A stretch of DNA of 64,000 bases, taken from assembly GCA_030632085.1 (NCBI GenBank), contig DAOVJY010000001.1:2125-66124 (forward strand), written 5' to 3'. The position numbers were made by a program, and so were the translations under genes. Below the pieces are notes generated by a model. That model saw nothing but the letters and a program-made list of their open reading frames with translations, ran no database searches and was not told the origin of the DNA. This document shows, piece after piece, positions 614 to 63,021 of the stretch. Numbering within the stretch: the first letter of the stretch is position 1; every line of letters begins with the position of its first letter. Origin of the DNA: Candidatus Omnitrophota bacterium (GTDB lineage Bacteria; Omnitrophota; Gorgyraeia; JAGLLT01).

Positions 614-676
614 TTATAACATCCTTTAAATTATATATAACACTATCAAGATAAATAAGTTAAGTCAATGACTAAA

Positions 677-34096: not shown

Positions 34097-36085
34097 TTAA
34101 GGCCGGGGCCGCTTAATAGAATCTACCAGCTCTAAGGTACCCAGTTTGCTGCATCCCTGCTGATTTATAAAATACCATGTAAGTTTAGCCGTCGCTGAAC
34201 CATCGCAATCATCTAAGTCATTAACCTTGGGACAAAGCCCCATAATCAAACCAACCCTTGGTTCAACTTTAAGAAACTCCCATTTTATAGCGGCTTCAAT
34301 AATATAACCGTTTTCGGTTTCAAGAAAGGCAAGCTTAATGTTATCTCCTATTTCCTGCCTCTGGAACCATGCCAAGGCCTGGGGTTTTTTATCTTTGCCG
34401 GATATAGTCAGGCCTATCTGGAAATCAAGCGGATTACCCCAAATTAATTTATTATTCTCAGGATCAATAAAAAGTTCAATGGTGTCATTGCGATATATCA
34501 TATTATCCTTATAGAAACTGAGTATCTGATTATCGGTTACTTTAAAAGCCGCGTAAAAATAATCATTATCCCACATAAACATACAATCACTTAATAAATC
34601 CTTATCTCTATCCGTAAGGTTGCCGTACTCCAGGTGTTGTTTTGGCTCTAACGCGATACATTCCGCGTGAGACCATTCGCTAAGTTTGCCGTCAATAAGC
34701 ATGCCTTGCGAGGTTTTAACAGCTAATATTCCGGGAACATCAGGTAACGCAACAACCTTAGAGCCGGGCTTAAAACCTATTTCCATAAGTGACTTTTGGA
34801 TGTCTTCATTTCTCATAAAATAATCCCAGAGCATTCCTGACCTGGCGTTTTCTATTCCTAAGATCATAGCACCTACATCAATTCCAATTACATCCTTCGC
34901 GTACCAATTACGAGTTACATTATAAGCGTCTGAAAAACCATACTTACCCCATATTTTATCCCCATGATTATCATACATAAACCTGAGGGCCGAAATAGAT
35001 TCTTCGGGAGTAAACATCATTGAGCCCGCGGCCGCTGTAGGGGCTACAGTCCCATCATGAACAGCCAGTCTCGTAGCCGGCGGGGCACCATACACCTTAT
35101 AACCTCCCGGGCCGTCACAAGCCGTCAAGCCCCAGGAGTCTTCTCCGTAAGACTTGTAACTTTTAGAATTATTAACGCAAAATTCTCTGTTAGCTAAAGT
35201 AGCTATTGTTGAATTCGCGTAGTAATCCGCGTATTTATCATGAATACCTCTTAAGTCAACCCAGAGCTGAGGAAACTGATGAGTAAATAAAGGTGAACAG
35301 ACAATACAGGTATATCCTTTATAACTTCTTATAGGGCGGTTAATCTCATCCCAGGCCGCGGCCGCGATAGGATAAGTCGGTGATCCAATTGCTAAAATAT
35401 AGCACAATATACCTTCGTTGTAATGATTCCAGCGAGCCATAAGCATTTTACCTCTATGATCCCAACCCATACTTAGGGTCCTGCCGCCAGCCAACATCCA
35501 CTGCCAGTCAGCTCTGTTGTAAAGTTCATTAGCTATCTCTTCAACTTCAGTACCTTTATAATACTCAGCGGCAGTTAAGGCGCCCGCTAAAAATATAGCT
35601 GTATCCATGGAAGATCCTTCTGAATTTGGTAAATGCCGGCCTGTATCCATGTGAACGAAATGGTAATAAAACCCGTGATTGCTTTCCATTTCATCCCGAA
35701 AATATTTAAGGGTACTTAAGACTCTTTCGTAAGCGGCTTTCTTGCTTACCCAGCCCCTTTCCTGAGCCACACAAATGGCACCCAAGCCATAACCTACGGA
35801 GGCCACAGACGCAATTTTCCTATCATCGGAAAAATTAAAATTATCAGCCCTGTCTTTAATTAAACCTGTTTCGGGATTAGCTTCATTCCATATAAAGAGA
35901 AAACACTTTTTTTGGACCATATCCAAAAATTCATCATCGCTCATAACTGAAACATCCGGTTTTGTAATCTCCGTAACCGGCTTAGGACGAGGAGCGGCGC
36001 AACCAAAAATTAGGGATACCGCAAAACATAAAATTGCCAATAACATTAAACCTAATTTATCCCGCTTCATTAAAAATCTCCTCAT
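34097..36085 (-). CDS. Glucoamylase-like (six-hairpin, putative beta-glucan/beta-1,2-glucanase-type) lipoprotein with C-terminal CBM9/DOMON-like domain
   Basis: Lipobox LIFGC. FIWNEANPETGLIKDR...GYGL..A...A..RGW region shared with the 855-aa paralog at 60454-63021. C-terminal IDGKLSEW... sugar-binding-like domain. Family assignment is by motif memory only. Confidence 0.55.
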   Translation of the reverse strand: MRRFLMKRDKLGLMLLAILCFAVSLIFGCAAPRPKPVTEITKPDVSVMSDDEFLDMVQKKCFLFIWNEANPETGLIKDRADNFNFSDDRKIASVASVGYGLGAICVAQERGWVSKKAAYERVLSTLKYFRDEMESNHGFYYHFVHMDTGRHLPNSEGSSMDTAIFLAGALTAAEYYKGTEVEEIANELYNRADWQWMLAGGRTLSMGWDHRGKMLMARWNHYNEGILCYILAIGSPTYPIAAAAWDEINRPIRSYKGYTCIVCSPLFTHQFPQLWVDLRGIHDKYADYYANSTIATLANREFCVNNSKSYKSYGEDSWGLTACDGPGGYKVYGAPPATRLAVHDGTVAPTAAAGSMMFTPEESISALRFMYDNHGDKIWGKYGFSDAYNVTRNWYAKDVIGIDVGAMILGIENARSGMLWDYFMRNEDIQKSLMEIGFKPGSKVVALPDVPGILAVKTSQGMLIDGKLSEWSHAECIALEPKQHLEYGNLTDRDKDLLSDCMFMWDNDYFYAAFKVTDNQILSFYKDNMIYRNDTIELFIDPENNKLIWGNPLDFQIGLTISGKDKKPQALAWFQRQEIGDNIKLAFLETENGYIIEAAIKWEFLKVEPRVGLIMGLCPKVNDLDDCDGSATAKLTWYFINQQGCSKLGTLELVDSIKRPRP

Positions 36086-47556: not shown

Positions 47557-47705
47557 AATACACCTCTTGTCCTGAGTTTCGCTTGTAGAATTAAATACAC
47601 GTTATAAAGTCATAAAAAACTATTTATACTATATCAGAGAGGCTTATTCCAGTCAAGTAAAAATTCTTGCTATTCTTCTTCAAAAAATTGCTATTAAATA
47701 ACAAC

Positions 47706-48311
47706 TTAATCTTTAAGATGATAATCAATAAACTGTGAGAGGAGTTCTCTGACAGTTTCCGGCGGACGGACAATAAAGTAGTGGTTTACAATCGCGTGGC
47801 CCAACTCATGCGCCAAAACATTCTCATTAATTCTATCTTCCGTAGTATATATCGTGTTATTTTCATATACGTAAAACGAATAAAGATGTCTACGCTCACC
47901 CATAATTTCTTCATAGGCATCATCGAGCATTTTTGTGGCTTTATAAAAAACCACGTTAACATGAAAATCGGCGGGATACATATCAAGTATCTGCTCCGAC
48001 CTTAAAAGAATTATGTCACATTTCAGGGCAACTCTTTTCGAAACACTGCCCTCGGCTTTAAGAGCGTTTTTTTCTGTCGCGAGGATATTAATAAATTTAA
48101 TGTTCAAACGCTTATCTAATTTATCAAAGTCGATATTGCCCACAAAATAAAGCGTACAATATTCACCTTCAACCTTATAAGCATTGTTCAATTCATCCGC
48201 CGGTACCCCGGATGAAAAAACAGAAATAAGCAAGGCGCTTATAAATAGAACTAACGCGAAAGCACGAGTTCCATTAAAGCTTGAACGTATTGATTTCCCG
48301 GGAGATATCAT
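47706..48311 (-). CDS. Secreted putative zinc metallopeptidase-like protein (HExxH)
   Basis: Signal peptide and a single HELGHAIVNH motif near the C-terminus. No other family assignment possible. Confidence 0.4.
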   Translation of the reverse strand: MISPGKSIRSSFNGTRAFALVLFISALLISVFSSGVPADELNNAYKVEGEYCTLYFVGNIDFDKLDKRLNIKFINILATEKNALKAEGSVSKRVALKCDIILLRSEQILDMYPADFHVNVVFYKATKMLDDAYEEIMGERRHLYSFYVYENNTIYTTEDRINENVLAHELGHAIVNHYFIVRPPETVRELLSQFIDYHLKD

Positions 48312-48831
48312 CTATAAGCTCTTTAGCCTCTTTACTTGTTTGATTTTTATCAGACTGTTTTTCCGCAATCAGAGAAAGAGCGTCTATCTTCTCTCTAAGT
48401 GATGAAATTCGCCTATTTAACGATTTGACCATTATATCTAAACTTTCGGCTACAATTTGCAGCTGATCCGCGGAACGCAGTTTTACTTCAAGGCTCAAGT
48501 TTCCATCTGTCACCTCTCGCGCCACTCTCTCAAATCTATATGCCGGGCCAACTATTTTATGTGATAAAAATAATGTAATTGAAATTACAGCCAAACTAAT
48601 TATAACTGTTGTAATTAGAGCTGTTAAAACCATCGAAGGTAAAAGGTAGTCCGCGGTAGACTTAATCACCAGCCTCGAATTTTCAAAAGCGGTAGTGCAG
48701 CTGGTCATTGAAAACATATACACCAAAGCGCCAAATACCAAACACGCCAAAGCTATAAGAAGGCAAAACTTAATTATAAATTTTGATTGAAAACTCTTGT
48801 TAATGTAATATTTTCTTCTTTTATTTGACAT
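48274..48831 (-). CDS. Membrane protein with HAMP domain
   Basis: Two TM segments flanking a short loop, followed by a HAMP-like amphipathic region (VGPAYRFERVAREVTDGNLSLEV...). Its 3' end overlaps the downstream ORF by ~38 nt, so the start is uncertain. Confidence 0.4.
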   Translation of the reverse strand: MSNKRRKYYINKSFQSKFIIKFCLLIALACLVFGALVYMFSMTSCTTAFENSRLVIKSTADYLLPSMVLTALITTVIISLAVISITLFLSHKIVGPAYRFERVAREVTDGNLSLEVKLRSADQLQIVAESLDIMVKSLNRRISSLREKIDALSLIAEKQSDKNQTSKEAKELIDDISREINTFKL

Positions 48832-48846
48832 TCAAAGCCTCCAATT

Positions 48847-49419
48847 TTATTCTAAGTTAATTTGCTTAAGAACCTCTTCATTAATTTTGATGTAAGATTT
48901 ATCTTTTAATTCTTCAATCCAGCCTCTCATCATGGCAGTCTCTTTTTCACATCTGATGATTCTTTTAATCTCGGGCTTAACTTCCGCCAAAATCTCCACA
49001 TCGGGATTCTTCTCCTTGAGAACTTTGTAATACGCCTGAATCTCATTATCATAAATAAAAACCTGATCAGATATCTCTTTTGCCTTTTTTTCAATTAACA
49101 TAATAAGTAAAGTTTGTTTCCAGTAACTCTCTATTTTTTTTCTGAACCTTTCATCTTTATCTAAGTTGAGGCTCTGAGCCTCCCGCAAAAGTACTTCTTT
49201 CTCTATGACATCATTTAAGGCGTTTAGCCTGCCCGCGTACGTTTTTATGCTCCGCGGCCTATAAAGAGATAGGCTTTTAATATCCTCCTTAAAATCATTA
49301 ACACTCATATAATAGGAATCAATTTGGGCGACCGTTTCAGAACTTTTTGAATTTTCCGAACAATTAATTTGTAAAATGGCTAAAATTGATATGCTAACGC
49401 AAAGTAAAATTTTACGCAT
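48847..49419 (-). CDS. Periplasmic SurA-N-terminal-domain-like chaperone lipoprotein (hypothetical)
   Basis: Signal peptide with ...LQINCSE lipobox-like cysteine; helical domain resembling the SurA N-terminal chaperone domain. Confidence 0.35.
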   Translation of the reverse strand: MRKILLCVSISILAILQINCSENSKSSETVAQIDSYYMSVNDFKEDIKSLSLYRPRSIKTYAGRLNALNDVIEKEVLLREAQSLNLDKDERFRKKIESYWKQTLLIMLIEKKAKEISDQVFIYDNEIQAYYKVLKEKNPDVEILAEVKPEIKRIIRCEKETAMMRGWIEELKDKSYIKINEEVLKQINLE

Positions 49420-49627
49420 TACATCTCTCCCTTGAGTAGTTTAAGTTAACGTCACATGACATAACGTAAATAAAAAACCGCCTTTAAAATCAATATATTA
49501 CGCTTCTTATAAGCCATTTGTCAAGCGCCATTAAATAAGGTAGATTTATCTTTACATAATAAATAGTATATACTATAATTATTAATTAGTGTAAGTAATG
49601 ATTCAATATTTATAAAGGGGCGGGAGG

Positions 49628-50962
49628 ATGAAAAAAATTAAAAAGGAATTATCTTTACTTGCGTTTTTACTGGTTATATGTTTTTTAGCTTGTAATTTAG
49701 TATACGCGGACGACAATATAGCCGGGGCTAAAGATACAAGAGACCTTGAGCTCTCAGATGAGAATAAAGCGAAACAAAGTGATATTAGGTTTTTTGGAAA
49801 AAAAGTAATTCCGATTTTAAATTTAGACCTTTTAGGTACTTATTCCAAAATTCAGGGACACAATGACACTACCGGCGCCATTGTTGACGTACTCGCCTCA
49901 CCCGCGATTAAAATTAATGATAACCATTATGTAATTCCGCTTTATAATTTCAACTATACCAGAGAACAACAAATTATAACTGAAGAAGAAGGCGGTTACT
50001 CCGTCCAACAAACACTTAACCACAACGTTTATTTAACTAATAAACTGAAATTAAATGATAAACTCACTACAAAAATAAGTGGTTTTGGAAGCTGGTCATA
50101 CAATAAAGAAACTAAAGATGAAAATTGGTCAAACGGACTTTATAACTATACCGATGTTGGCGGTATTATGGATTTCGAGTATGAACTGGGCGATATCCGG
50201 GATAACGTCTTTGATGAAGCCGGCTTAGAACTGGAATATTACAAGCGTAAATATCCTAACTTCAAATCTCTAATATCTCTTGCTTCTCCCACAGCTTCTG
50301 AAGAAGATGAAAAAGACTATGACGGCTTCAAGTTAATCTTCGGTTATTTAAGGGATAATCCTCAAGGATTATCTGTCGAAGCTGCATACCAGCCCCTCTG
50401 GAAAAAATATATTGACAAACTGGTTATTGGTTCTGACGGCGTTTTAATTGATGGAGATAAACGCGAGGACAACCGGCACGCCTTTGATCTAAACTTAAAA
50501 TATCCTACAACAAAACGCCTTACCTTATATCTTGAGAATGAACTCACGATTAACAACAGTAATCAAAACTTTTATGATTCTAAAGGTACTACAAGCCTAT
50601 CTGATGATGAATACATTTCCAACTATTATGATTACAACTCTTATATGATTAGGCCGAAAGTATCCTATGCTATCCCAGTTAAGGAAGAAAAAGACCTGAC
50701 TGTTCATCTTGCCTACGCGTATTTAGATAAACAATACAACGATCGCAAGGCTCAAAGTTCAACCGGCCTTTATATGAGTGAGGACGAAGAAGATCAATTC
50801 CACACCTTCAGCTTCGGGCTGTCATATCCTATAACTGAAAAAGTTAAAGCTATAGCTCTATTTGATTACACCATTGCCAAATCAAACATGGAATACGAGA
50901 AGTACTACAGATATAACTATGATTTGATGAGTATAGCTTGCGGTATATCCTGCAGATTTTAA
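49628..50962 (+). CDS. Putative outer-membrane beta-barrel protein
   Basis: Signal peptide; alternating amphipathic beta-strand pattern with Tyr/Asn-rich composition; C-terminal ...GISCRF ending in Phe, as in OMP sorting signals. Confidence 0.45.
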   Translation: MKKIKKELSLLAFLLVICFLACNLVYADDNIAGAKDTRDLELSDENKAKQSDIRFFGKKVIPILNLDLLGTYSKIQGHNDTTGAIVDVLASPAIKINDNHYVIPLYNFNYTREQQIITEEEGGYSVQQTLNHNVYLTNKLKLNDKLTTKISGFGSWSYNKETKDENWSNGLYNYTDVGGIMDFEYELGDIRDNVFDEAGLELEYYKRKYPNFKSLISLASPTASEEDEKDYDGFKLIFGYLRDNPQGLSVEAAYQPLWKKYIDKLVIGSDGVLIDGDKREDNRHAFDLNLKYPTTKRLTLYLENELTINNSNQNFYDSKGTTSLSDDEYISNYYDYNSYMIRPKVSYAIPVKEEKDLTVHLAYAYLDKQYNDRKAQSSTGLYMSEDEEDQFHTFSFGLSYPITEKVKAIALFDYTIAKSNMEYEKYYRYNYDLMSIACGISCRF

Positions 50963-52069: not shown

Positions 52070-53475
52070 TAAATTAATTCCGCCTCTTCACCTGTTTGAG
52101 GCAGATGAGCGTTATAACCCCGCCTTAGCAGGGAATCATGTAAACTCGTTGACTGATCTTCATCACCATGAACAATATATATATCTTTCAAAGATGTATT
52201 TGACTTTCTTACATAGTTAATCAAATCTTCTTTATCAGCATGGGCGCTAAACGCGTTTATTACCTCAACTTCCGCTTTAAGATTATATTCAACACCGAAG
52301 ATCTTCACTCGCGGATACCTCTCAACAAGGCGCCGTCCTAATGTATTTTTTGCCATATAGCCCACAATTAAAACCATATTCCTTTCATCCTCGATATTAT
52401 TCTTTAAGTGATGCAGTATTCTTCCGGCTTCACACATACCTGAAGCGGAAATAATTATCATGGGCCTTTTATCATCGTTAATCTTCTTTGATTCCTCAAC
52501 GCTCCTCGTAAGATGAAGGTTCTTTATGCCAAAAGGGCTCTCATCATTATAAAACATAGCTCGAGCTTCTTCGTCAAAGCATTCAACGCTCTTTTTAAAA
52601 ACACCGGTCACATTAACAGCCATGGGGCTATCTACATATATCGGCAGCTCGGGAATTCTTTTGCTCTTCATCAGCTCACCCAGATAATAGATTATCTCCT
52701 GCGATCTACCTAAGGCAAACGAAGGAATAATCACCTTGCCTCCGCGCTCCACCGTCCGATTGATATAAAATGTTAAATCATCCTCGGCGTACTTAATATC
52801 TCCACGAAGCCTGCCGCCATAAGTACTCTCAATTATTAAATAATCCAAAAAGCCTTTGGGTAAAAAAACCGGGTCTTTCAATAGAGGCATATTAGCCCTG
52901 CCTAAATCAACGGCATATGCCAGGTTAATCTCTTTTCCGCCCTTTGCCTTAATGTTAAGCACAACTATAGCCGAGCCAAGAATATGCCCGGCATCTATAA
53001 AAGTACAGCTGATATCTTCAGTCACCTGAAACTTACTATTATAAGCCTTGCCTTCAAATAAGTCGAGTGAGAGTTCGGCAATCCGGGTTGTATAAAGCGG
53101 CTTTCGCAAGGGCAGCCCTCTCCTTTTATTTATCTTATTTAAAAATTTAATGTTTTCTTCCTGTATATGGGCTGAATCTAAAAGCATAATTTTACACAAA
53201 TCAGCTGTAGCTTCAGTCGCGTATATCTTATTTTTAAAACCTTGCTTGGTGAAATTAGGGATATTGCCGCAATGGTCTATGTGGGCGTGGGAAACTATCA
53301 AGGCGTCTATCTTGGACGGCTTAAAAGCGAATTCACTGTTTATTCGATAGTAATCAGCTCTTTTACCTTGAAATAAACCGCAATCAATTAGAACCTTGCT
53401 TTTAGGAGTCTCAATCAAATGAGTGGAGCCGGTCACGGTTCTGACCCCTCCGCAAAATTTAACTTTTACTGCCAT
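52069..53475 (-). CDS. MBL-fold beta-CASP family metallo-hydrolase (putative RNA-processing nuclease)
   Basis: HAHIDHCG motif 2, further His/Asp motifs and a C-terminal beta-CASP-like region. 468 aa. Confidence 0.65.
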   Translation of the reverse strand: MAVKVKFCGGVRTVTGSTHLIETPKSKVLIDCGLFQGKRADYYRINSEFAFKPSKIDALIVSHAHIDHCGNIPNFTKQGFKNKIYATEATADLCKIMLLDSAHIQEENIKFLNKINKRRGLPLRKPLYTTRIAELSLDLFEGKAYNSKFQVTEDISCTFIDAGHILGSAIVVLNIKAKGGKEINLAYAVDLGRANMPLLKDPVFLPKGFLDYLIIESTYGGRLRGDIKYAEDDLTFYINRTVERGGKVIIPSFALGRSQEIIYYLGELMKSKRIPELPIYVDSPMAVNVTGVFKKSVECFDEEARAMFYNDESPFGIKNLHLTRSVEESKKINDDKRPMIIISASGMCEAGRILHHLKNNIEDERNMVLIVGYMAKNTLGRRLVERYPRVKIFGVEYNLKAEVEVINAFSAHADKEDLINYVRKSNTSLKDIYIVHGDEDQSTSLHDSLLRRGYNAHLPQTGEEAELI

Positions 53476-53487
53476 ATTACGCCTTTC

Positions 53488-53958
53488 TTATCGAGTTTTT
53501 TTTATATTTTTAAAACGTGGTAATATTTTATAAGCATCAAAATTATACCACATTCTATAGAATAATGAATATGGTAAAAAAGCTTTTCGAAAGGTGCTAT
53601 CAATAATCAGGTGCCCCAACATCCCCAAAGAAAGGGCCATGGAATACTTGCCCCACCCAAAAAAGAGGCCCGTTATATAAATTAATATAATTAATTCCCA
53701 AGAATGAAAATATACATATATTTTTCCTGATTTTAAATAACCGATAAAAACAAACTTTTTTAAATCAAATTTAAATCCGTAATGGCTAAAGTAATCTATG
53801 AAGTGATCTAAATCTATTAAAATACCGCCAATTACCACCAGAACAACCAATATAAAGCTTGAATAAAATTTGTATATCAATAATGATAATATTGATGTTA
53901 CGATTAAATGAGTTGATAAATCAACGGCAAGATGCTTATATTTATTAGTGCTAATCAA
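53488..53958 (-). CDS. Membrane-bound metal-dependent hydrolase, YdjM/DUF457 family
   Basis: 156 aa, 4-5 TM, conserved His residues (HLAVD..., GHLIIDS). Confidence 0.55.
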   Translation of the reverse strand: MISTNKYKHLAVDLSTHLIVTSILSLLIYKFYSSFILVVLVVIGGILIDLDHFIDYFSHYGFKFDLKKFVFIGYLKSGKIYVYFHSWELIILIYITGLFFGWGKYSMALSLGMLGHLIIDSTFRKAFLPYSLFYRMWYNFDAYKILPRFKNIKKTR

Positions 53959-54292
53959 AATTCAAATCTTCCCTTTTGATTACTTTTATACCTGAGTCTT
54001 CATCTTTTTCTTTTAAAACATCTACGATATCAAACTTCTCACCTGTCGCCATACGAGAGTCAAGAGAAGGATAGTCTCTCTGAATTGCTTGAACTTCATT
54101 CTTGTTTAAAACTATTATCATAATGGAGGTTTTAACCGCCATTTTTTCATCATCCTCTTTTATTATCCGGCCTTCATAAATATTACCGTTTTTAAGATGA
54201 ATTATATCGGCCGCCGCCGCGCTCACAAGAAACAAACAAAGAAAACATACCATTAATACAATTCTCTTCATATCTTTCACCTCATATATCAA
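53951..54292 (-). CDS. Small secreted protein sharing an N-terminal beta domain with the TPR-like protein
   Basis: Signal peptide; IIHLKNGNIYEGRIIKEDDEKMAVKT parallels IIVLKDGAEIRGEVISGNDSSITVKS of the 414-aa protein. Confidence 0.35.
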   Translation of the reverse strand: MIYEVKDMKRIVLMVCFLCLFLVSAAAADIIHLKNGNIYEGRIIKEDDEKMAVKTSIMIIVLNKNEVQAIQRDYPSLDSRMATGEKFDIVDVLKEKDEDSGIKVIKREDLNFD

Positions 54293-54319
54293 GACGTTCG
54301 CCTTCGCTCACTCTAAGAA

Positions 54320-54550
54320 TTAAGACACAAAATATAACCAATCATCAATAATCAAGTTACAAGATACAAACAATATTCAAATTCCAACATCCAAGCACCA
54401 AACTGCTATCCTTGCTTTGCTTCGGTTTGATTATTTGACCCTTCAATGTTAATCAGGGTCAATCCTGAGCGCAATCGAAGGATTGAATTTGTTATGGTTA
54501 TTGGTCATTGTTTGGTTATTGTCTCTTGTATCTTGTTTCTTGTTTTTTTT
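54320..54550. repeat. Composite repeat: AC-rich arm, palindromic element B copy 3 (54433-54485, inverted), GT-rich arm
   Basis: Left arm aagacacaaaatataaccaatcatcaataatcaagttacaagatacaaacaatattcaa. Right arm ttgttatggttattggtcattgtttggttattgtctcttgtatcttgtttcttg, which is roughly the reverse complement of the left arm and nearly identical to 2970-3010. Confidence 0.65.
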
Positions 54551-54677
54551 ATCCGCTCTAAAAATTAAGTTTTTTTATTTAATCCCGTGTTCAAATCCTG
54601 CTTTTAACTTAATCCCATTTTTTAGCACTTAGCATATAGTAAGTTTACAAATAATTATCTTTTTAGTTTTTTGTCTT

Positions 54678-54750
54678 TTGCTTCTAACTTAATCCTTAGA
54701 GCTCACCATCAGTTTGTTGGTGGTGAGCGCCTTAATCCCTAATCCTATTT
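54678..54750. repeat. Hairpin element D, copy 2 (cttctaacttaatccttagagctcacca...tggtgagcgccttaatccctaatcc)
   Basis: Copy 1 at 3088-3180. Central 6-8-bp inverted repeat gctcac(ca)/(tg)gtgagc flanked by repeated cttaatcc motifs. Differences between the copies change stem length. Confidence 0.65.
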
Positions 54751-54769
54751 TATTATATCATATAAAGAA

Positions 54770-55309
54770 TTAATCGGAAGCCTTAAAATCCTTGAAATCA
54801 TAAACCTTTAGTAAATTTATAGCTCGCTTATCTTTTCTAATCTCAAAGTGTAAATGCGTTATCATATCAGTTATATTGGCATTGCCGCTCTTGCCCACCT
54901 CGCCAATAACCTGTCCTTGCCTAACCCAACGCTTAGGCTTAATATAGACTTTATTAAGATGCAGATAATATGATTTAGTCCCATCGCGATGGCTAACAAC
55001 CAAATAGCTGCCTGATAAATCATCATACGAAACCTTCTCCACCCATCCGCATTTACAGGCTAAAACGGGCGTTCCAACCTCAGCCGTTAAATCAATCCCT
55101 CGATGCCTGTAGCCTCTCCTGGGCGCCCCAAAGTGCCCATCTCCGTACTTATCCACTCTTATAACTATAGGAATCTCCGCTGGTAGAGGTTTAATGATAT
55201 CGTATTCATCAATAAAATAATAATCATAAAAAAAGCAGGCACCCAAAACCAATGCGGCTATGATTATGACTGCTATGATTGTTTTCTTAAAGTTATATTT
55301 TAATTTCAT
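54770..55309 (-). CDS. M23-family metallopeptidase
   Basis: N-terminal TM anchor; HRGIDL...G.PV ... HLHFEI motifs. Confidence 0.75.
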   Translation of the reverse strand: MKLKYNFKKTIIAVIIIAALVLGACFFYDYYFIDEYDIIKPLPAEIPIVIRVDKYGDGHFGAPRRGYRHRGIDLTAEVGTPVLACKCGWVEKVSYDDLSGSYLVVSHRDGTKSYYLHLNKVYIKPKRWVRQGQVIGEVGKSGNANITDMITHLHFEIRKDKRAINLLKVYDFKDFKASD

Positions 55310-55316
55310 TAGGTAT

Positions 55317-57251
55317 TTATAGCACCTTTAGCGCGATTATGGTTATATCATCATGCTGAGGCGCTTTACCGCAGAATTCGGCAAGATCGGCTCTTAAGGC
55401 CTCCAGAATGCCGGCCGCGCCCTTTTGATGATTGGCCTTCGTAACCTCTTTTATCCTTTGAAATCCATACTCTTCTTTTTTTAGGTTTCTCGCTTCACTA
55501 ACCCCGTCAGTATAAAAAATTAAGGCATCTCCGTGAGCCAGCGTAAACTCTTTCTCGTCAAATTCAACATCAGGCATCAGGCCTAAGGGCATACCTTTAG
55601 TGGGCCTTTCCTCAACAACCTCATTATCAACGGCTTTATAATGCATTAAGGGCAAATGCCCACCATCAGCTAAAATAACTTTTTTACTCTTAGCATCAAT
55701 TATAGGATACGACACCGTAACAAATAATCCCGTTTTAGTTCCTTTTTGAAGCTCATTATTTAGACGCTTTAAGACTTCATCCGGCTTATCAACCTCATTT
55801 GACCAACTCTTAAATTCAGTAACAATCCTTACCATAAATAAAGCTGCCGGAATACCTTTACCAGAAACATCGGCTATCATAATACCAAACTTATCATTAG
55901 GTAACTTTACGAATTGATACAGGTCGCCTCCCACCTGCTTGGCGGCATTCATGTTAGCGGCTACATCAAACCCCTCAATCTTAAGAGGTTCCTGCGGCAG
56001 AAAACTTTCCTGGATGCGGCGGGCCACTTCTAATTCTTTTCCCAGGAACTCCCCTCTGTGCATTTCTAAAATAAGCCCGTAAAAGGTCATCGCCAAATAA
56101 AGAAAAACACTAAATGATACCGGATAAAATAAATCTATCCATATTCCCTTATATATAAACAAAACGAAACTTAATACAATAAAGCCCGCGATAGCGATAA
56201 TATTAAGAAATAAGCCTTTGTAGACAGTATGCCTGCTAAGCGCGATTACAACAAAAGACAACCCCAGAAGAATCAGGATGTTTATCCAGCGCTCTACTCT
56301 TACAACATACTGATTAGTGGTTATTGAATTAAAAAGATTGAGGTGGGCTCCCACGCCCGGATACCTTTCCTCAACGGGAGCCGGATGCATATCAAAAAGG
56401 CCGGTAGCGGTTAAAGCTACATAACAAACCTTATCTTTAAGATCTTTTAAGTCAACAACACTCTTGCCCATAACTTCCGTAGACTCAGAATAACAATGCG
56501 CGTCTAAAATATCTATAAAGGAATAGTGTTTATATATTTTACCCCATTTATCTATATAGTTTATTAAAGCCTCATTTTTATTGTTTATAGGAATAACGGC
56601 CTTATCCGCCAACTTGATATAATCACCTTTATCAAAAATAATTTCATCATCCCTAAGGCCATAATAATCCTTAACGGCTGTTAAGGTCAAATGAGGATAA
56701 TAGTTATCTTCATACTTCACATAAAGGGGTATCTTCCTATACTTTCCGTCAATATCAGGCACTATATTAATGTGCCCGCTTCCGGCAGCCGCTTTATTTA
56801 ATCTTTTAATAATAACATCCTCATAGCATTCAGCCGTAACTTCATCATCTTTTGAATAATCAATGATAAAACTATAAGGGTAATAGGCCTTACCGTAATC
56901 CTTTGTAGCTTTTATCAAATGGTCATCAAAATCGCTCGGCTCGGAAAATAGAATATCAAAAATTGCCATTCTTGCCCCGGCCTGCCTTAAGGCCTCAATA
57001 AGATGGGCATGATATATTCTCTGAAAAGGCCAAGAACCAATTCTCTCAATATCATAAGAAGATATCTCAATAATTACAATATCGGAATTTACTTTCTGTG
57101 ATTTATTAAAGGCGGGCCTTAACTGAAAACGCCGGTCAAGAGTTTGGAGTTCAAATATCTCAAATATCCTAAAATAACTTAATAATAGGATAATTACCGC
57201 GCATAGAGATAAAAGAAAATATTTTATTATCTGTTGTCGATATTTACGCAT
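55317..57251 (-). CDS. CHASE2 sensor domain - PP2C-type (SpoIIE/RsbU-like) serine phosphatase
   Basis: N-terminal TM plus CHASE2-like extracytoplasmic region and several TM helices. C-terminal PP2C motifs (GGDLYQF, IADVSGKGIPAALFM, DGVSEARN). Confidence 0.7.
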   Translation of the reverse strand: MRKYRQQIIKYFLLSLCAVIILLLSYFRIFEIFELQTLDRRFQLRPAFNKSQKVNSDIVIIEISSYDIERIGSWPFQRIYHAHLIEALRQAGARMAIFDILFSEPSDFDDHLIKATKDYGKAYYPYSFIIDYSKDDEVTAECYEDVIIKRLNKAAAGSGHINIVPDIDGKYRKIPLYVKYEDNYYPHLTLTAVKDYYGLRDDEIIFDKGDYIKLADKAVIPINNKNEALINYIDKWGKIYKHYSFIDILDAHCYSESTEVMGKSVVDLKDLKDKVCYVALTATGLFDMHPAPVEERYPGVGAHLNLFNSITTNQYVVRVERWINILILLGLSFVVIALSRHTVYKGLFLNIIAIAGFIVLSFVLFIYKGIWIDLFYPVSFSVFLYLAMTFYGLILEMHRGEFLGKELEVARRIQESFLPQEPLKIEGFDVAANMNAAKQVGGDLYQFVKLPNDKFGIMIADVSGKGIPAALFMVRIVTEFKSWSNEVDKPDEVLKRLNNELQKGTKTGLFVTVSYPIIDAKSKKVILADGGHLPLMHYKAVDNEVVEERPTKGMPLGLMPDVEFDEKEFTLAHGDALIFYTDGVSEARNLKKEEYGFQRIKEVTKANHQKGAAGILEALRADLAEFCGKAPQHDDITIIALKVL

Positions 57252-57263
57252 TAAATAAGTATC

Positions 57264-57977
57264 TTAATTTAAAGTTCCCTTTTGTATATCACTTCCGCTA
57301 TCTTGAGATTTCTTAATCTTTCTATCTTTCTTTTTAGAAGCCTTAGTGTCTGTATCATCAGACTTGATAAGAAGTTTCCAGGGGTGAGCTTTTAAGTCGG
57401 CGCTAAAATCTTTAAAGTTTTCCGTAGTCGCTTCGATATTTTTAAGTGTCATATCAACTTCTTTTCTACTTACCATTTCATTAATATGCCCGGTTAATTT
57501 ATTAACATTTTTTATAGCTTCATCTAAATTCACAGCCATATCATCAGCCTTATCCATAAGAGCTTCCAATCTGAAAGGATCTTCACCTCTGATAGGTTTT
57601 GCGGGATTTCTAAAGGGACTGCCGGTACTGCCGCCGCTTATTTCAATATATTTCTCACCCATTAATCCCAGGGTCGTAATATAAAACTTTGAATCATCTC
57701 TAACTTTAGCCCCATCATTCATAAAGAGATCAACGGCAACATGAGTTTTTTCCTGATCACAAATAATCCGGATATTTTTAACATATCCAACTTCCGCTCC
57801 GCAAAGCCTAACCGGAGAATGAGTTCTGAGGCCGCTGACGTAGTCATAAAAGACACGCAAAGTATACCCATCCTTTTTAAAATGCAGAGCACCGGTTGAA
57901 TAAATAAATGTAAGAACAATAAAAAAGACAACGATAAGCATTAATCCCGTTTTAAATTCATTTGTAACCTTGGGCAT
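57264..57977 (-). CDS. mlaD: MCE-domain protein MlaD
   Basis: N-terminal TM anchor followed by an MCE domain; downstream of mlaE-mlaF. Confidence 0.75.
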   Translation of the reverse strand: MPKVTNEFKTGLMLIVVFFIVLTFIYSTGALHFKKDGYTLRVFYDYVSGLRTHSPVRLCGAEVGYVKNIRIICDQEKTHVAVDLFMNDGAKVRDDSKFYITTLGLMGEKYIEISGGSTGSPFRNPAKPIRGEDPFRLEALMDKADDMAVNLDEAIKNVNKLTGHINEMVSRKEVDMTLKNIEATTENFKDFSADLKAHPWKLLIKSDDTDTKASKKKDRKIKKSQDSGSDIQKGTLN

Positions 57978-57988
57978 AGTTTAACTCC

Positions 57989-58795
57989 TTATTTCTCGGT
58001 TAATTCTTTTAAATAATTATCGCCTTTTTGTAAAAACGAAATCGGGCCTTCCGGCTTACCGTTAATAAACTGCTGAACAAGTTCATCCTTTGAATTTTTT
58101 ATTTCTTCCCGTGTGCCCACGGTGACAATTTCTCCTTTATGAAGCATGGCTATACGGCTGGCTATTCTAAAAACACTCTGCATATCATGGGTTACCACCA
58201 CGGAAGTTACAGCAAGCTTCTTAGAAAAATCAAGTATGAGCTGGTCTATAACACCGGCAACAACCGGGTCTAAACCGGCTGTGGGCTCATCATAAAATAC
58301 AAAGACCGGATCAAGCGCGATAGCTCTGGCTAAGGCGGCCCTCTTGTTCATACCGCCGGAAATTTCACATGGTAAAAGGCTGCCCATACCGCGCATACTT
58401 ACCATACTTAGCTTCAAATTAACTATAATATCTATTACACTTTCATCTAAATTAGTATGCTCTCTCAAGGGCAAGGCAATATTATTCCTAATATTCATAT
58501 AATCAATTAAACCGCCTGACTGAAAAAGCATACCTATTCTGCGCCTTATCTTATCAAGCTCTCTCTGAGGCACAGCATTAATATCCTGGCCTTCAATTAA
58601 CACCTGCCCTTCATCCGGGCGCAATATTCCGATAATATGCCTTAAAAGCGTACTCTTGCCGCAGCCGGAACCTCCCATAATAACCATAACTTCACCTTTA
58701 TAAATCTGAAGGTCGACACCGTTTAAAATACGCCGCCCGGCAAAACTCTTAACTAAATTTTTCACTTCTATAACCGGTTTTTCTTTATCTTCCAT
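57989..58795 (-). CDS. mlaF: ABC transporter ATP-binding protein MlaF
   Basis: Walker A GGSGCGKST, signature ISGGMNKRAALARA, Walker B VFVFYDEPTAGLD. Confidence 0.85.
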   Translation of the reverse strand: MEDKEKPVIEVKNLVKSFAGRRILNGVDLQIYKGEVMVIMGGSGCGKSTLLRHIIGILRPDEGQVLIEGQDINAVPQRELDKIRRRIGMLFQSGGLIDYMNIRNNIALPLREHTNLDESVIDIIVNLKLSMVSMRGMGSLLPCEISGGMNKRAALARAIALDPVFVFYDEPTAGLDPVVAGVIDQLILDFSKKLAVTSVVVTHDMQSVFRIASRIAMLHKGEIVTVGTREEIKNSKDELVQQFINGKPEGPISFLQKGDNYLKELTEK

Positions 58796-58803
58796 AATCT
58801 TCC

Positions 58804-59616
58804 TTACATATTACCAAAGTAAAATATAGCGGTTAATATCGCGTCAGCTAAAATTATCAAAACAAACGAAGTAACTACGCTCTCAGTTGTCGCCCTACCA
58901 ACACCCTCAGCGCCTCCTTCTGTATTTAAACCCTTATAGCAAGCAATAAGGCAGATAATTACACCAAAAACGGCACTTTTAAATAGTCCTGTCATGATAT
59001 CTTTTAAGGCCAGAAACTCCTTTGTCATCTCAATATACAAATGGCCGTTAATATTTAAGTTCGTAACCCCTATAATAAAACCACCTAAAATACCGCTTAA
59101 ATCAGCTATTGCCGTTAATGCCGGCATCATAATCAACAAAGCCAAAAATCTGGGAACAACTAAAAATCTAATCGGATTTATAGCCATGGTTTCCAAAGAC
59201 TCTATCTGCTCGGTCACTTTCATGCTGCCTAATTGAGCGGTAATAGCCGCGCCCACTCGGCCGGCTACAACCAGAGCGGTCAATACCGGCCCCAGTTCTC
59301 TTGTTATAGAAACGGCAACCAATCCGGTTACATAGATAACCGCGCCTAACTGCTGTAGTTGATAGGCGCTCTGCATAGCTAATACAAAACCGGTAAATAT
59401 GGCAATAAAAAAGACAATGATGATTGACTTAACACCAACAAAGACCATTTGCTCAAAAATAGTTTCTCGGTTGGCCGCCTTACCTTTAAAAGGGCCGATA
59501 AAAAGCCAATGCAGCACCTGCATAAAAAGATAAAATATATCCGTGATAGTCCTAAGCAAGGAATTAACTTTTGCTCCTAAAGAACTTATGAAATCAACCG
59601 GTTTTTTATTTTCCAT
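58804..59616 (-). CDS. mlaE: ABC transporter permease MlaE
   Basis: 270 aa, 5-6 TM, MlaE/YrbE family (conserved GPVLTALVVAGRVGAA). Confidence 0.85.
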   Translation of the reverse strand: MENKKPVDFISSLGAKVNSLLRTITDIFYLFMQVLHWLFIGPFKGKAANRETIFEQMVFVGVKSIIIVFFIAIFTGFVLAMQSAYQLQQLGAVIYVTGLVAVSITRELGPVLTALVVAGRVGAAITAQLGSMKVTEQIESLETMAINPIRFLVVPRFLALLIMMPALTAIADLSGILGGFIIGVTNLNINGHLYIEMTKEFLALKDIMTGLFKSAVFGVIICLIACYKGLNTEGGAEGVGRATTESVVTSFVLIILADAILTAIFYFGNM

Positions 59617-59619
59617 ATC

Positions 59620-59952
59620 TTAAAATGAGGTTATCGCTTTTTCTTCGGAATCTTCAAAATCGAAAATATCTTTTAATCTGACCATATCAAGAATTTCTTT
59701 TATCTTCTCAGGCGTCTCGGCCAGCTTTAAATCACCTTCAGCGCTTTTTACTTTTTGTAAAAGCTCTACCAGTGTAGCCATTCCGGAACTATCTATATAT
59801 CCTACATTCTTCAAATTAATAACTACTTTTTTTACTCCCTGATCTACAGCCTCAATAAGTTTTTTTCTCAAATCGGGTGATGTCGAAAATGTAATCTCTC
59901 CGCTAACTCTACAGATAATCATATCATCTTTTTTTTCTATAAGAATATCCAC
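59620..59952 (-). CDS. STAS-domain anti-sigma-factor antagonist (RsbV/SpoIIAA-like), in the MlaB position
   Basis: 110 aa with the phosphorylatable serine motif YIDSSGMATLV. Confidence 0.8.
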   Translation of the reverse strand: MDILIEKKDDMIICRVSGEITFSTSPDLRKKLIEAVDQGVKKVVINLKNVGYIDSSGMATLVELLQKVKSAEGDLKLAETPEKIKEILDMVRLKDIFDFEDSEEKAITSF

Positions 59953-59954
59953 CT

Positions 59955-60404
59955 TTAATCTCCCTTTTTTATTTTTTTTATCATAGTAATTTGATTGCCC
60001 TTATCATTAAAACATACTTCATCCATCAGGCGGCGTATCAAATAAACACCTCTGCCTTTTAACTCCTGACGATTTTCTTCTAATGTCGGATCCGGAAGGT
60101 TTTCATAATCAAAACCCTCACCCGCGTCAGTTATGATGATTTTTAAAATATCGTTATCTACATTATAGGCTATTTCAATAGGTAGGCCGGAATTTAGTTT
60201 ATTGCCGTACTTCATGGCATTTATCAATGCTTCTTCTATACAAAGGCGTATATCCAATAAATCATAGGCGGTTAAATTATATGGTAGGAGAGATTGCAGT
60301 ATTCGCGCGCTTGCTTCTTTAACTTTTTTAAGCTCACTGGGAATTTTCATCGCTTCAGATAGTCTCACATCCGCCCCTTTGTTTAGTTTTTTATTATTAT
60401 ACAT
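59955..60404 (-). CDS. RsbW/SpoIIAB-like anti-sigma regulatory serine kinase (GHKL ATPase)
   Basis: N-box EEALINAMKYG, G1 ITDAGEGF, G2 GRGVYLIRRLMDEV; 149 aa. Confidence 0.75.
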   Translation of the reverse strand: MYNNKKLNKGADVRLSEAMKIPSELKKVKEASARILQSLLPYNLTAYDLLDIRLCIEEALINAMKYGNKLNSGLPIEIAYNVDNDILKIIITDAGEGFDYENLPDPTLEENRQELKGRGVYLIRRLMDEVCFNDKGNQITMIKKIKKGD

Positions 60405-60453
60405 AATTTATGGGTATCTTGTAAACCGTTTTCTTTGCTTTTCTTAAAATATA

Positions 60454-63021
60454 ATGTATAATAATTCTATGAAAAGATATTTATTATTTGTACTTCCTTT
60501 TTTATTAATAGCACTTTTCTCTTGCGATTATCCTAAAGTTAAAAAGAGAGACACGCAAGCACCTCTTATCCCCGCACGGGAAGCTCTCAAGCTTAATGAT
60601 GATCAACTCCTTGATGAAATAGAGTACCGCATTTTTAATTATTTCTGGAATGAAATATATCCTGAGACGGGAATTGCCTATGATCACACCCGGAACAAAA
60701 TAGGCAAGGTGGCGGCAACGGGCTTTGAATTAGTCGCCGTTTGCATCGGGATTGATAGAGGTTGGGTTAGTTATGAAGAGGGTTACAAAAGATGCCTGCT
60801 TATCTTAAATACCTTTTGGGATGACCCGGACGACCCGGATGATATATTCGCTGAGGGAAAATACGGCCTCTACTGGCACTTTATTGACGGCCGCACGGGA
60901 AAGAAAAGTCCCATAGACTGTGTCGCCATGTGTGATAGCGCCGATTTTATCGCGGGCGCTTTAATCGCGGGGGAGTACTTTAAAGGAACTGAAATTGAAG
61001 AACTTTCAAAAAAAATATACGATAACGTTGAGTGGGATAAATTTGCCGCCTACAATGATAACGGACAAGCGGGACTGTTGTCTTACGGCTGGGTGCCGCC
61101 GGAGATATCAGAAAGTTATTATGATATAGACGGACTCATACCTATGAATATGGGGTTCCTAAATGATAACTCCCTACTTATATACGCGATGGCCTTAGGG
61201 TCTAAAACGCACCCTATATCTAAAAATACCTGGCAAGCTTACGTGAATACTTATGCCAAAGGAGAATACGCGGGTTACAACTGCCATATGGCGGGAGCTC
61301 TTTTTGAACGGGAAGTGCCCTTTTCGTTTATTGACCCCAGACGAAAACGAGATTTGAATATAGATTATTATCAAGATACTATAAATGCTATATTAGCCGA
61401 TATGGCCTTCAATCAAAAAGAAAACCGGTATCCCTCCTGGGCCTGGGGCCTAAGCGACTGCTTCGGTAAAAATACATACTCGCATGCCGCTCCCCCGGGA
61501 TATACCGCCAACGACGGCACTATAGCCACCAACGCCTTTGTCTGCTCCCTGCCCTTTGTGCCTGAAATATCTTTGAGGTCTATCAGAAAATCAATAGAGC
61601 GCTACGGTGATAAATATTGGGGAAAATACGGCCTGCCCAGCTCATATAACTTAAAAACGGATTTTATCAGCCCCTATTATGTAGGCATAGAAACCGGCCC
61701 TATGATATGCATGATTGAAAATTACAGAAGCGGCATGGTCTGGGATTTATTCGCGCGAACGGATGTTATGCGTAATTTTATTAAACGAGGTAACTTCTCC
61801 GGAGTAATTGACGACTTTGAACTGCCGCCGGAAGCTCCATCGTATGCCTTATGGAATTCCACTGATGGAAGTTTTGAAATACGCGCGGGCAACAACCCTC
61901 AACACGGAAGCAAATGCCTTTCAATTACATCCACCGCCAACCGTATTATCTTAATCGCGAAACTCTCCGAAAACGATTTATTAAAATATAATTTCAATAA
62001 ATATATTTCTTTATGGAGCCGCAATATCGAAATTAATTCCGTCTCAATTAAAACCGGGCGCTTCTTTTTTAAAAAACTTCAACCCTCGGGTTATGTAGAT
62101 TCGCAAATCTGGCGGCATTATTATTTTAAACTACCTGAAAATATAACCGGCAGACAGCTAAAGTCCATATCACTTGACTGCAAAACAACAGGACGGAGTC
62201 CCGCCATAGATAACATAACCTGTGAATTTAAAAATATAACCCAAGTTCCCGCGAAAGTAAAATTTATCTTAGCCCAAGAGGGCAAAATTGGTAAAACCAT
62301 CAAACTTAACTGGAAAAAATCCGACGACGAAAATATAAAAGAATATATTATTTACGTAAGCAAAAAACCAATAGTAAATAATGAAGATTTTAAAAACGCG
62401 GAAAAAATAGTACTGGCCAATTCTAATAATAATTCCGAGGTAATTGGTAAAACCATCCTCAAAAAAGATAACGGCCTTTACTATTTCAACGTAAGAACAA
62501 AAAATAAATGGGGCCATATAAGCCCGCCTTCGGATTGCCTTTCATCAAAAAGCAATCCCGGCAGCTGCAATCCCATGCTTTATGATTTTAGCTCCCCCTG
62601 CTTATCTAAATGGCAGCCCAGCAACCCCGACTGGAAACTTGAGATAGTTAAAATCATAAATGAGCAAGCCGCGGAAACCGATGCCCTTAAAATTCATTTT
62701 ATTAAAACGGATAACGCCTGGGATTATATTGAGATTGAAGTTGATCCGGAACTGCTGGCTATTCACCGCTATTTAGCTATCAAAGTCAAAGGTAAAGCAA
62801 AAATATTAGCTAAATTGTTTATTAAAAAGAGTGAACAGCAGGATATTGAAATAATCGAAGCTAAAAATGAGGGCTGGAATTTATTAATCTTTGATATGCG
62901 GCTGGCTTCTCAATTAAGAGACCGCCTGGATAAGGTTGTTAAAATACTTCTTTTTATTGAACCCGGTTCAGTAAATGTTGAAGGTGACATTTATATCGAC
63001 GAAATTAAAATGCTGAATTAA
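60454..63021 (+). CDS. Glucoamylase-like (six-hairpin) lipoprotein with C-terminal Ig/FN3-like domains; paralog of 34097-36085
   Basis: Lipobox LFSC. YFWNEIYPETGIAYDH...GFEL.AVCIGIDRGW region parallels the 662-aa paralog. C-terminal beta-rich region (KLNWKKSDDENIKEYIIYVSKK). Confidence 0.55.
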   Translation: MYNNSMKRYLLFVLPFLLIALFSCDYPKVKKRDTQAPLIPAREALKLNDDQLLDEIEYRIFNYFWNEIYPETGIAYDHTRNKIGKVAATGFELVAVCIGIDRGWVSYEEGYKRCLLILNTFWDDPDDPDDIFAEGKYGLYWHFIDGRTGKKSPIDCVAMCDSADFIAGALIAGEYFKGTEIEELSKKIYDNVEWDKFAAYNDNGQAGLLSYGWVPPEISESYYDIDGLIPMNMGFLNDNSLLIYAMALGSKTHPISKNTWQAYVNTYAKGEYAGYNCHMAGALFEREVPFSFIDPRRKRDLNIDYYQDTINAILADMAFNQKENRYPSWAWGLSDCFGKNTYSHAAPPGYTANDGTIATNAFVCSLPFVPEISLRSIRKSIERYGDKYWGKYGLPSSYNLKTDFISPYYVGIETGPMICMIENYRSGMVWDLFARTDVMRNFIKRGNFSGVIDDFELPPEAPSYALWNSTDGSFEIRAGNNPQHGSKCLSITSTANRIILIAKLSENDLLKYNFNKYISLWSRNIEINSVSIKTGRFFFKKLQPSGYVDSQIWRHYYFKLPENITGRQLKSISLDCKTTGRSPAIDNITCEFKNITQVPAKVKFILAQEGKIGKTIKLNWKKSDDENIKEYIIYVSKKPIVNNEDFKNAEKIVLANSNNNSEVIGKTILKKDNGLYYFNVRTKNKWGHISPPSDCLSSKSNPGSCNPMLYDFSSPCLSKWQPSNPDWKLEIVKIINEQAAETDALKIHFIKTDNAWDYIEIEVDPELLAIHRYLAIKVKGKAKILAKLFIKKSEQQDIEIIEAKNEGWNLLIFDMRLASQLRDRLDKVVKILLFIEPGSVNVEGDIYIDEIKMLN

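Follow-up and report, generated by a model that had tools for sequence, protein, structure and literature searches.

Partner-switching kinase, STAS and phosphatase genes in an Mla-type lipid transporter operon of Omnitrophota: a candidate phospho-switch

We analyzed a 64-kb stretch of DNA (64,000 nucleotides, referred to below as the window) from a Candidatus Omnitrophota contig (DAOVJY010000001.1), in which genes for an Mla-type lipid transporter, mlaE, mlaF and mlaD, share one operon with genes for an RsbW-type serine kinase, a STAS protein and a CHASE2-PP2C phosphatase. The closest described transporter is MlaFEDB of Escherichia coli, which has in common with this operon the MlaE, MlaF and MlaD proteins, a small STAS protein encoded in the same operon, an MlaF "handshake" tail with a Tyr...Leu pattern, and a Ser/Thr residue of the STAS protein at the position of Thr52, at the start of helix alpha-2 (Thong 2016, PMC5016091; PMC7367683). 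The E. coli STAS protein, MlaB, is a subunit of MlaFEDB and binds MlaF by a helical face centered on alpha-2 and Thr52; the T52E phosphomimetic weakens MlaF binding, and without MlaB, MlaF does not stay on MlaE (PMC7367683). Kolich 2020 asked whether MlaB is phospho-regulated at Thr52 and left "if and how" unresolved, and no kinase is known (PMC7367683). A phylum-wide survey of Mla systems identified MlaB by synteny and mentions no kinase (PMC10665443). The Omnitrophota operon differs from that of E. coli in several respects: its STAS gene lies directly upstream of mlaE, whereas mlaB is the last gene of the E. coli operon; a kinase and a PP2C phosphatase are co-encoded; and neither mlaC nor mlaA was found, whether in the operon or elsewhere in the window. 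No prior link of partner-switching, anti-sigma antagonists or Ser kinases to Mla or MCE systems was found in the literature searched, which left subscription journals largely outside its coverage.

The regulatory genes belong to the same three protein families as the RsbU/RsbV/RsbW-sigmaB and SpoIIE/SpoIIAA/SpoIIAB-sigmaF modules of Bacillus, with intact catalytic motifs and a DSSG phosphosite. In the Bacillus modules, however, the STAS gene precedes the kinase gene, whereas here the kinase gene comes first, an ABC lipid transporter is encoded between the STAS protein and the phosphatase, the operon, the 64-kb window and the scanned neighborhoods of related loci yielded no sigma factor gene, and the phosphatase carries a CHASE2 membrane sensor. 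Partner-switching without sigma factors occurs in SiaABCD and HsbR/HsbA of Pseudomonas aeruginosa, SypE/SypA of Vibrio fischeri and BtrUVW of Bordetella. In these systems, the unphosphorylated STAS or STAS-like protein acts directly on an effector and is controlled by a PP2C phosphatase and a GHKL kinase. The effector proposed here is of a different kind, an ABC transporter ATPase, which to our knowledge and in the literature searched has not been described as a partner-switch output. The Rsb system of Chlamydia consists of the membrane sensor phosphatase RsbU, RsbV1/V2 and RsbW, whose genes are dispersed and not known to be linked to mla. It resembles the present locus in its PVC-related (Planctomycetes, Verrucomicrobia, Chlamydiae) lineage, a membrane PP2C with a periplasmic sensor, an RsbV-like STAS protein, an RsbW-like kinase and the absence of an adjacent alternative sigma factor; the type of sensor differs, being a CHASE2 domain with four transmembrane (TM) helices here.

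We lean slightly towards the view that the operon encodes an MlaE2F2D6-type Mla/MCE transporter in which a phosphorylatable RsbV-type STAS protein serves as a functional analogue of MlaB and alternates between MlaF and the kinase. When unphosphorylated, the STAS protein would dock by its helical face, centered on alpha-2 and Ser55, on the MlaF helical subdomain and on the handshake tail of the adjacent MlaF. Like MlaB in E. coli, it would thereby hold MlaF on MlaE in an active state. The RsbW-type kinase would bind the same face and phosphorylate Ser55, the phosphorylated STAS protein would bind neither partner, and transport would be turned down. The CHASE2-PP2C phosphatase may sense an envelope or periplasmic cue via its external CHASE2 domain and dephosphorylate the cytoplasmic STAS protein, by which transport would be switched back on. 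The sequence data establish which genes are present, that the catalytic motifs are intact, the membrane topology, the geometry of the phosphosite and the conserved linkage; STAS-MlaF binding, phosphotransfer and the sign of regulation are the steps that we infer, and kinase-switched Mla is put forward as a hypothesis from genomic context in uncultured organisms. What is likely new here can be put in two equivalent ways: partner-switching whose likely output is an ABC lipid transporter, or an Mla system that carries its own phospho-switch.

An earlier note on this DNA, made from the sequence, had suggested that phosphorylation of a MlaB-like STAS protein could gate Mla transport. Its gene identities and the conserved context were borne out, the MlaB family label was not, and the gating itself is no more than suggested by genomic context. 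All six open reading frames (ORFs) that it described were found at the positions given, and profile searches agreed with its domain calls; its operon was one gene too short, as the M23 peptidase gene at the downstream end had been left out. The view that canonical mla operons encode neither a kinase nor a phosphatase agrees with the literature (PMC7367683; PMC10665443).

STAS protein, transporter core and regulatory enzymes

The STAS protein scored 82 bits with PF01740 and 78.8 bits with the NCBIfam anti-sigma-antagonist model TIGR00377 (cut-off 53). A PDB sequence search returned RsbV (6m36, 9e-13) and SpoIIAA (7e-12), and also TM1442. The AlphaFold2 model had a pLDDT of 94.5, and a Foldseek search with this model placed kinase-bound RsbV and SpoIIAA structures on top, at a root-mean-square deviation of 1.1-1.3 A (1.1 A for RsbV). 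Ser55 of the D54-S55-S56-G57 motif (codon 59788-59790) caps the N-terminus of helix alpha-2 (residues 55-70) in the model and is the predicted phospho-acceptor, as it occupies the same position as the residue that is phosphorylated in SpoIIAA and RsbV. The DSSG motif was invariant among STAS homologues. The STAS gene lies within the mla operon, 3 nt upstream of mlaE, and its place in the operon is kept in 41 other loci; the protein is probably the functional counterpart of MlaB, being the only STAS protein of the operon and occupying the slot directly upstream of mlaE. Because the MlaF-binding face of MlaB corresponds to the kinase-binding face of RsbV and SpoIIAA, MlaF and the kinase would, by analogy, be mutually exclusive partners of the STAS protein.

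All components of an MlaFED core were detected, i.e., an MlaE permease, an MlaF-type ATPase and a membrane-anchored MCE protein. MlaE scored 272 bits with TIGR00056 (cut-off 212). For MlaF, the match to its best NCBIfam model covered positions 1-267 of 270 with 246 bits, which, at an equivalog cut-off of 441, supports a family-level call only. Chains of MlaF in PDB matched the window protein at 1e-61 to 1e-67 and through residues 262-264, that is, into the C-terminal extension that corresponds to the E. coli handshake residues Y261/L265/L266 (PMC7367683). MlaD has a TM helix at residues 12-30. For MlaC and MlaA, there was no Pfam match among window ORFs of at least 100 aa, and the full MlaA-F pathway was therefore not found in the 64-kb window.

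The kinase belongs to the HATPase_c_2 family (PF13581, 1e-25), and its nearest named models are RsbW and SpoIIAB, both matched below their equivalog cut-offs. The ATP-binding N, G1 and G2 boxes of the Bergerat fold align with those of RsbW and SpoIIAB, and the N box (E..N), G1 box (DxGxGF-D) and G2 box (GRG) are invariant in nine Omnitrophota orthologues that are 36-79% identical. Translation probably starts at GTG 60368, giving a protein of 137 aa, rather than at ATG 60404 (149 aa); this start is favored because a promoter-like site overlaps the ATG. The GTG is preceded by AAAGGGG, V13 marks the point at which four close orthologues begin, and 137 aa is also the length given by an independent JGI gene call.

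The phosphatase is a membrane protein by hydropathy, with a positively charged, cytoplasmic N-terminus, TM1 at residues 12-30, an extracytoplasmic CHASE2 domain (~31-320) in an external loop of ~295 aa, three TM helices between residues 325 and 395, and a cytoplasmic PPM/SpoIIE domain (~400-644). All five phosphatase motifs are present (GGD441, DVSGKG461, DGG529, TDG581 and DDIT634), and the four Asp-containing motifs (GDLY, DVSGKG, TDG and DD) are kept in 12 orthologues with 35-89% identity. The last gene of the operon, which starts 7 nt past the PP2C stop, codes for an M23 peptidase with a TM helix at residues 10-28, HxxxD at position 69 and HxH at position 152. Three related loci (L001, L002 and L161) have this gene in the equivalent position; in a fourth (L003), it comes one gene later.

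Conservation of the gene order in two phyla

A search with MlaE retrieved 80 genome loci, which we annotated. Of 11 informative Omnitrophota genome loci, 10 had the kinase-STAS-mlaEFD order, at MlaE identities as low as 57%, and so did every one of the 19 Acidoferrales-type Acidobacteriota loci. A kinase-seeded metagenome scan provided seven further loci, mostly with CHASE2-PP2C, and the order was also present on five sampled contigs, including an independent JGI gene call, which gave, besides the window, a total of 41 loci in two phyla. None of ~45 loci from Thermodesulfobacteriota, Ignavibacteria, Chlorobi, Nitrospirota/Nitrospinota, Myxococcota, Cloacimonadota and Proteobacteria had this order, and the recurrence in the one set together with its absence from the other places the arrangement far beyond chance. 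The earlier note had named a lack of conservation in relatives as a sign of fortuitous juxtaposition; the order is instead kept over deep divergence and in a second phylum. That an Rsb-type module and an mla operon came to be neighbors by accident in one genome has in its favor only the prior expectation that adjacent genes can be unrelated, is contradicted by the 41 further loci and by junctions of 2-12 nt, and is extremely improbable.

A PP2C phosphatase is linked to the cassette in both phyla, although in different architectures, a CHASE2 membrane sensor in Omnitrophota and a soluble protein in Acidobacteriota. CHASE2-PP2C directly follows mlaD in five Omnitrophota loci and follows two inserted genes (FecR-like and porin-like) in two others. 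A FecR-like gene after mlaD, usually then a weakly porin-like gene (BBP2_2), was observed in six loci (L005, L010, L012, L082, L123 and L137), and any CHASE2-PP2C gene comes next; these FecR-like and BBP2_2 products may be outer-membrane partners of the transporter. The Acidobacteriota cassettes end with an ABC_trans_aux lipoprotein gene, and in four of them (L023, L162, L163 and L164) a convergent gene for a soluble, SpoIIE-only PP2C of 269-272 aa directly follows; in L164, it is adjoined by an additional Response_reg-SpoIIE protein. A search with an Acidobacteriota kinase returned 682 clusters, each of which bore a generic label, either RsbW or anti-sigma regulatory factor, and all three sampled proteins (55-57% identity) were encoded within kinase-STAS-MlaE-ABC-MlaD-ABC_trans_aux cassettes.

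Variation in the slot upstream of mlaE was also informative. One Omnitrophota chromosome (L009, OY759724.1) has, 72 nt upstream of mlaE and where sister genomes have the kinase and STAS genes, a gene (9534-9923) for a single-domain receiver of 129 aa with the canonical residues D14/D15, D58, T88 and K110. In an MlaE+MlaF tree, this locus nests inside the kinase/STAS-linked Omnitrophota clade, which suggests that the slot is held by a phospho-acceptor regulator and that one such regulator replaced another in L009. One Phycisphaerales locus (L042) has a DSSG-type STAS gene that overlaps the start of mlaE and no kinase nearby. The STAS domain is fused to MlaE in at least 23 proteobacterial loci. 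Within the set L050-L080, drawn from Legionellales, Xanthomonadales-like and other Proteobacteria, proteins of ~370-400 aa have a STAS_2-like domain N-terminal to MlaE. Like the operon described here, these fusions tie a STAS domain to an MlaE/F/D core and keep the D-S/T motif; they differ in that the STAS domain is covalently attached and STAS_2/MlaB-like, MlaF is short (245 aa in Legionellaceae) and lacks the handshake tail, and neither a kinase nor a phosphatase is present.

The tail of MlaF followed the state of the STAS protein. Of 32 loci whose STAS protein is free, 22 had a motif of the form [DEN][YF]xxxL; among 32 fused or STAS-less loci, the motif was confined to L033, which itself actually has a free STAS; this association rests on few independent lineages. 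These data bear on a different mode of action, in which the kinase itself binds and inhibits MlaF or MlaFE in place of a sigma factor and the STAS protein relieves this inhibition by sequestering the kinase and never binds MlaF. RsbW/RsbV and SpoIIAB/SpoIIAA are established to work in this way, and the kinase is linked to mlaEFD as tightly as the STAS protein is. However, the known STAS-Mla relations are direct (binding of MlaB to MlaF in E. coli and STAS-MlaE fusion proteins), L042 has a DSSG-type STAS protein beside MlaE and no kinase, and the MlaF handshake tail, a contact of MlaB in E. coli, tracks with free STAS. We consider a role of the kinase as the direct inhibitor quite unlikely.

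It is of interest whether the cassette arose once or twice. In a neighbor-joining tree of MlaE+MlaF, bootstrap support for monophyly was 100% for Omnitrophota and 100% for Acidobacteriota, a sister relationship of the two was recovered in only 4% of bootstrap replicates, and their kinase clades are far apart in the kinase tree. Between the two phyla, mla-linked STAS proteins share 31% identity, compared with 21-25% to those of stand-alone STAS-kinase pairs; DSSG is kept by the mla-linked STAS proteins alone, and the stand-alone class has SSAA or SSAV there. As far as can be judged from these comparisons, the data would fit a single ancient cassette as well as convergent assembly, and either history argues for functional coupling. 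Two cassettes labelled Candidatus Dormiibacterota (L017 and L032) nest among Acidoferrales in both the kinase and the MlaE+MlaF trees, suggesting mis-binning or recent transfer.

Several observations weigh against a STAS protein that acts as a MlaB analogue. First, it scored 25 bits with the MlaB model NF033618, well under the cut-off of 90, no MlaB chain was found in the PDB sequence search at E<=0.01, and E. coli MlaB appeared only at rank 43 (TM-score 0.65) in the Foldseek search. The model also carries beta-5 (98-100) and alpha-4 (103-108), which are absent in MlaB, and so has a full-length RsbV/SpoIIAA-type fold rather than the minimal fold. The name MlaB was rejected for this protein on both the sequence-model and the minimal-fold grounds, and "MlaB-like", as used in the earlier note, does not suit as a family label, since the protein groups with RsbV/SpoIIAA antagonists by sequence and fold; by family, as judged from profiles and the predicted structure, it is an anti-sigma-antagonist-type kinase substrate and not a MlaB. 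The earlier note had named such grouping, combined with a separate mlaB and an RsbW-controlled sigma factor elsewhere, as evidence against its view; the grouping was seen, whereas the 64-kb window and the flanks of related loci contained neither of these genes. Second, MlaB T52A is non-functional yet still binds MlaF (PMC7367683), and given this variant, simple on/off phosphoregulation may be too simple. Third, MlaEFD works without MlaB in most phyla (Grasekamp 2023, PMC10665443), and in the absence of MlaB, the MlaF protein of Veillonella still carries a short C-terminal extension (PMC10665443). Fourth, one kinase- and STAS-containing Omnitrophota subclade has a variant MlaF tail without the Tyr motif. 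Finally, and as the main caveat, on one metagenome contig (L090, Ga0066640_10017206, positions 331-3059) the kinase, STAS and CHASE2/PP2C genes form a tight trio, spaced by 12-17 nt, that contains no mla genes; its kinase falls inside the mla-linked clade, beside L011. Another locus (L152) has kinase and STAS genes without mla. The regulatory module can therefore occur without the transporter, and the gene for its target may lie elsewhere.

These points are relevant to another explanation, a Chlamydia/PVC-style Rsb module whose real output is a sigma factor or other protein encoded elsewhere, so that mla is merely co-transcribed, e.g., as part of an envelope-stress unit, and the STAS protein does not touch MlaF. 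It would account for the RsbV/SpoIIAA class of the STAS protein by hidden Markov models, PDB sequence search and fold, for L090 and L152, for the dispensability of MlaB in most phyla (PMC10665443), and for the kinase tree, in which a large clade of kinases from stand-alone STAS-kinase pairs is the sister group of the mla-linked kinases of Omnitrophota. On the other hand, the mla genes are inserted between the STAS and PP2C genes, 3 nt past the STAS stop, an arrangement kept across Omnitrophota even where MlaE identity falls to 57%; Acidobacteriota, whose kinase clade is unrelated and whose PP2C is of another type, share the kinase-STAS-mlaEFD order; and STAS domains do bind this transporter, as is seen from E. 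coli MlaB and from the fusions of STAS to MlaE. In addition, no sigma factor (no Sigma70-family match), second STAS protein, second kinase or second PP2C was found by Pfam among ORFs of at least 100 aa in the 64-kb window, no sigma factor was found among the profile-scanned neighbor genes of related loci, and a separate mlaB was not present in the window or the flanks of related loci. We regard a remote target as unlikely, though it deserves more weight than a direct inhibitory role of the kinase. For the STAS protein as an analogue of MlaB, the additional beta-5 and alpha-4 elements, which pack on the opposite side of the sheet, should be compatible with both MlaF and kinase binding.

Relatives with the canonical STAS-kinase order were also considered as a pointer to a sigma factor target and were rejected, as the downstream genes code for Amidase_2, MutS, rhomboid and amino-acid kinase proteins and no sigma factor. 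In 11 such loci (L094, L096, L103, L112, L114, L115, L125, L133, L135, L159 and L160), the STAS and kinase genes are followed by a gene for a ~225-aa protein and by ORFs of ~160 and ~490 aa. The ~225-aa protein was Amidase_2 in both scanned loci (L096 and L160), and the STAS protein has SSAA/SSAV in place of DSSG. This arrangement may be another partner-switch with a non-sigma, cell-wall-related output.

Operon limits and other features of the window

The features of the operon are listed in Table 1. The kinase, STAS, MlaE, MlaF, MlaD, CHASE2-PP2C and M23 peptidase genes are separated, in this order, by 2, 3, 8, 11, 12 and 7 nt in the ORF map; because the operon is so tight, the seven genes are probably translationally coupled. 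The closest MlaE relatives are from an uncultured metagenome-assembled genome (CBDUVS010000022, 95% identity) and 'Ca. Kappaea frigidicola' (88%), and these relatives point to a placement of the window in Candidatus Omnitrophota; no record was returned for exact matches to the window STAS protein or to P0001, a cluster representative 100% identical to it.

Table 1. Coordinates of the operon and associated features in the 64-kb window
Feature	Position	Strand	Basis or remarks
Seven-gene operon	54770-60404	minus	Seven co-directional ORFs
Promoter-like site TTTACA-18 nt-TATAAT	60396-60425	minus	11/12 matches; ~50-nt divergent intergenic region
RsbW/SpoIIAB-type GHKL serine kinase	59955-60368 (ORF to ATG 60404)	minus	HATPase_c_2
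Single-domain STAS protein, 110 aa, RsbV/SpoIIAA class	59620-59952	minus	PF01740
MlaE permease	58804-59616	minus	PF02405, 3e-82; begins 3 nt after STAS stop
MlaF ABC ATPase with C-terminal extension	57989-58795	minus	Best NCBIfam model MlaF
MlaF C-terminal extension GPISF...GDNYLKEL	57992-58057 (~residues 247-268)	minus	Compared with E. coli handshake residues
MlaD: N-terminal TM anchor, MCE domain, helical Lys-rich tail	57264-57977	minus	PF02470, 1e-14
Membrane sensor phosphatase, 644 aa	55317-57251	minus	CHASE2, 2e-48; SpoIIE/PP2C PF07228, 2e-48
Membrane-anchored M23 (LytM-type) peptidase, last operon gene	54770-55309	minus	PF01551, 5e-26
Stable hairpin, 11-nt arms, 6-nt loop	54701-54728	minus	Inverted repeat; 42 nt past M23 stop

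The promoter-like site upstream of the kinase gene was the top-scoring one within 53000-61500 and overlaps the annotated kinase ATG; total site counts in the promoter and terminator scan were not above those of shuffled sequence, and this site was used as a hint only. The hairpin past the M23 gene has a fold z-score of -2.95, and none of 200 shuffled sequences folded as well; it is likely the transcript end, though it lacks a U-tract. A scan of 53000-61000 against Rfam at E<=0.1 had no match. The 477-nt non-coding stretch past the operon (54293-54769) contains ~5 copies of GGATTAAG (TTAATCC on the plus strand), a tract rich in A and C, and a number of long-range inverted repeats, again with no Rfam match at E<=0.1.

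Other genes in the window are for riboflavin, fatty-acid, ack-pta, SMC, efflux and glycoside-hydrolase functions. Two paralogous genes for 'putative glucoamylase' (PF10091) were found at 34097-36085 and 60454-63021, the latter being divergent from the operon, a position kept in L001, L002 and L161. Four consecutive minus-strand ORFs at 45418-50962 (712, 201, 185 and 190 aa) had no Pfam match; beside them is a plus-strand ORF of 444 aa with a signal-peptide-like N-terminus and a C-terminal Phe, resembling outer-membrane beta-barrel proteins.

Implications for Mla regulation

The two-phylum distribution, with different kinase clades and phosphatase types and a receiver replacement in one lineage, raises the wider idea of an MCE transporter as a direct output of partner-switching, on which we are evenly divided. 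If true, phospho-control of a cytoplasmic accessory subunit would be a general and overlooked mode of MCE regulation outside Proteobacteria. An ABC transporter ATPase would join the short list of non-sigma partner-switching outputs, and the system would show how one STAS face serves two partners. The finding also matters for annotation: hundreds of soil proteins are named "RsbW" or "anti-sigma regulatory factor" (the 682 clusters described above), every context examined was an mla cassette, and Acidobacteriota-type "RsbW" proteins may play no part in sigma factor control.

These operons provide a candidate kinase, phosphatase and substrate beside the transporter, so that the question of MlaB phospho-regulation becomes testable with five or six recombinant proteins. 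If the proposed switch is correct, it would link an extracytoplasmic CHASE2 sensor to the lipid homeostasis of the outer membrane in two phyla that are abundant but little studied, the nano-sized Omnitrophota and the Acidobacteriota of soils.

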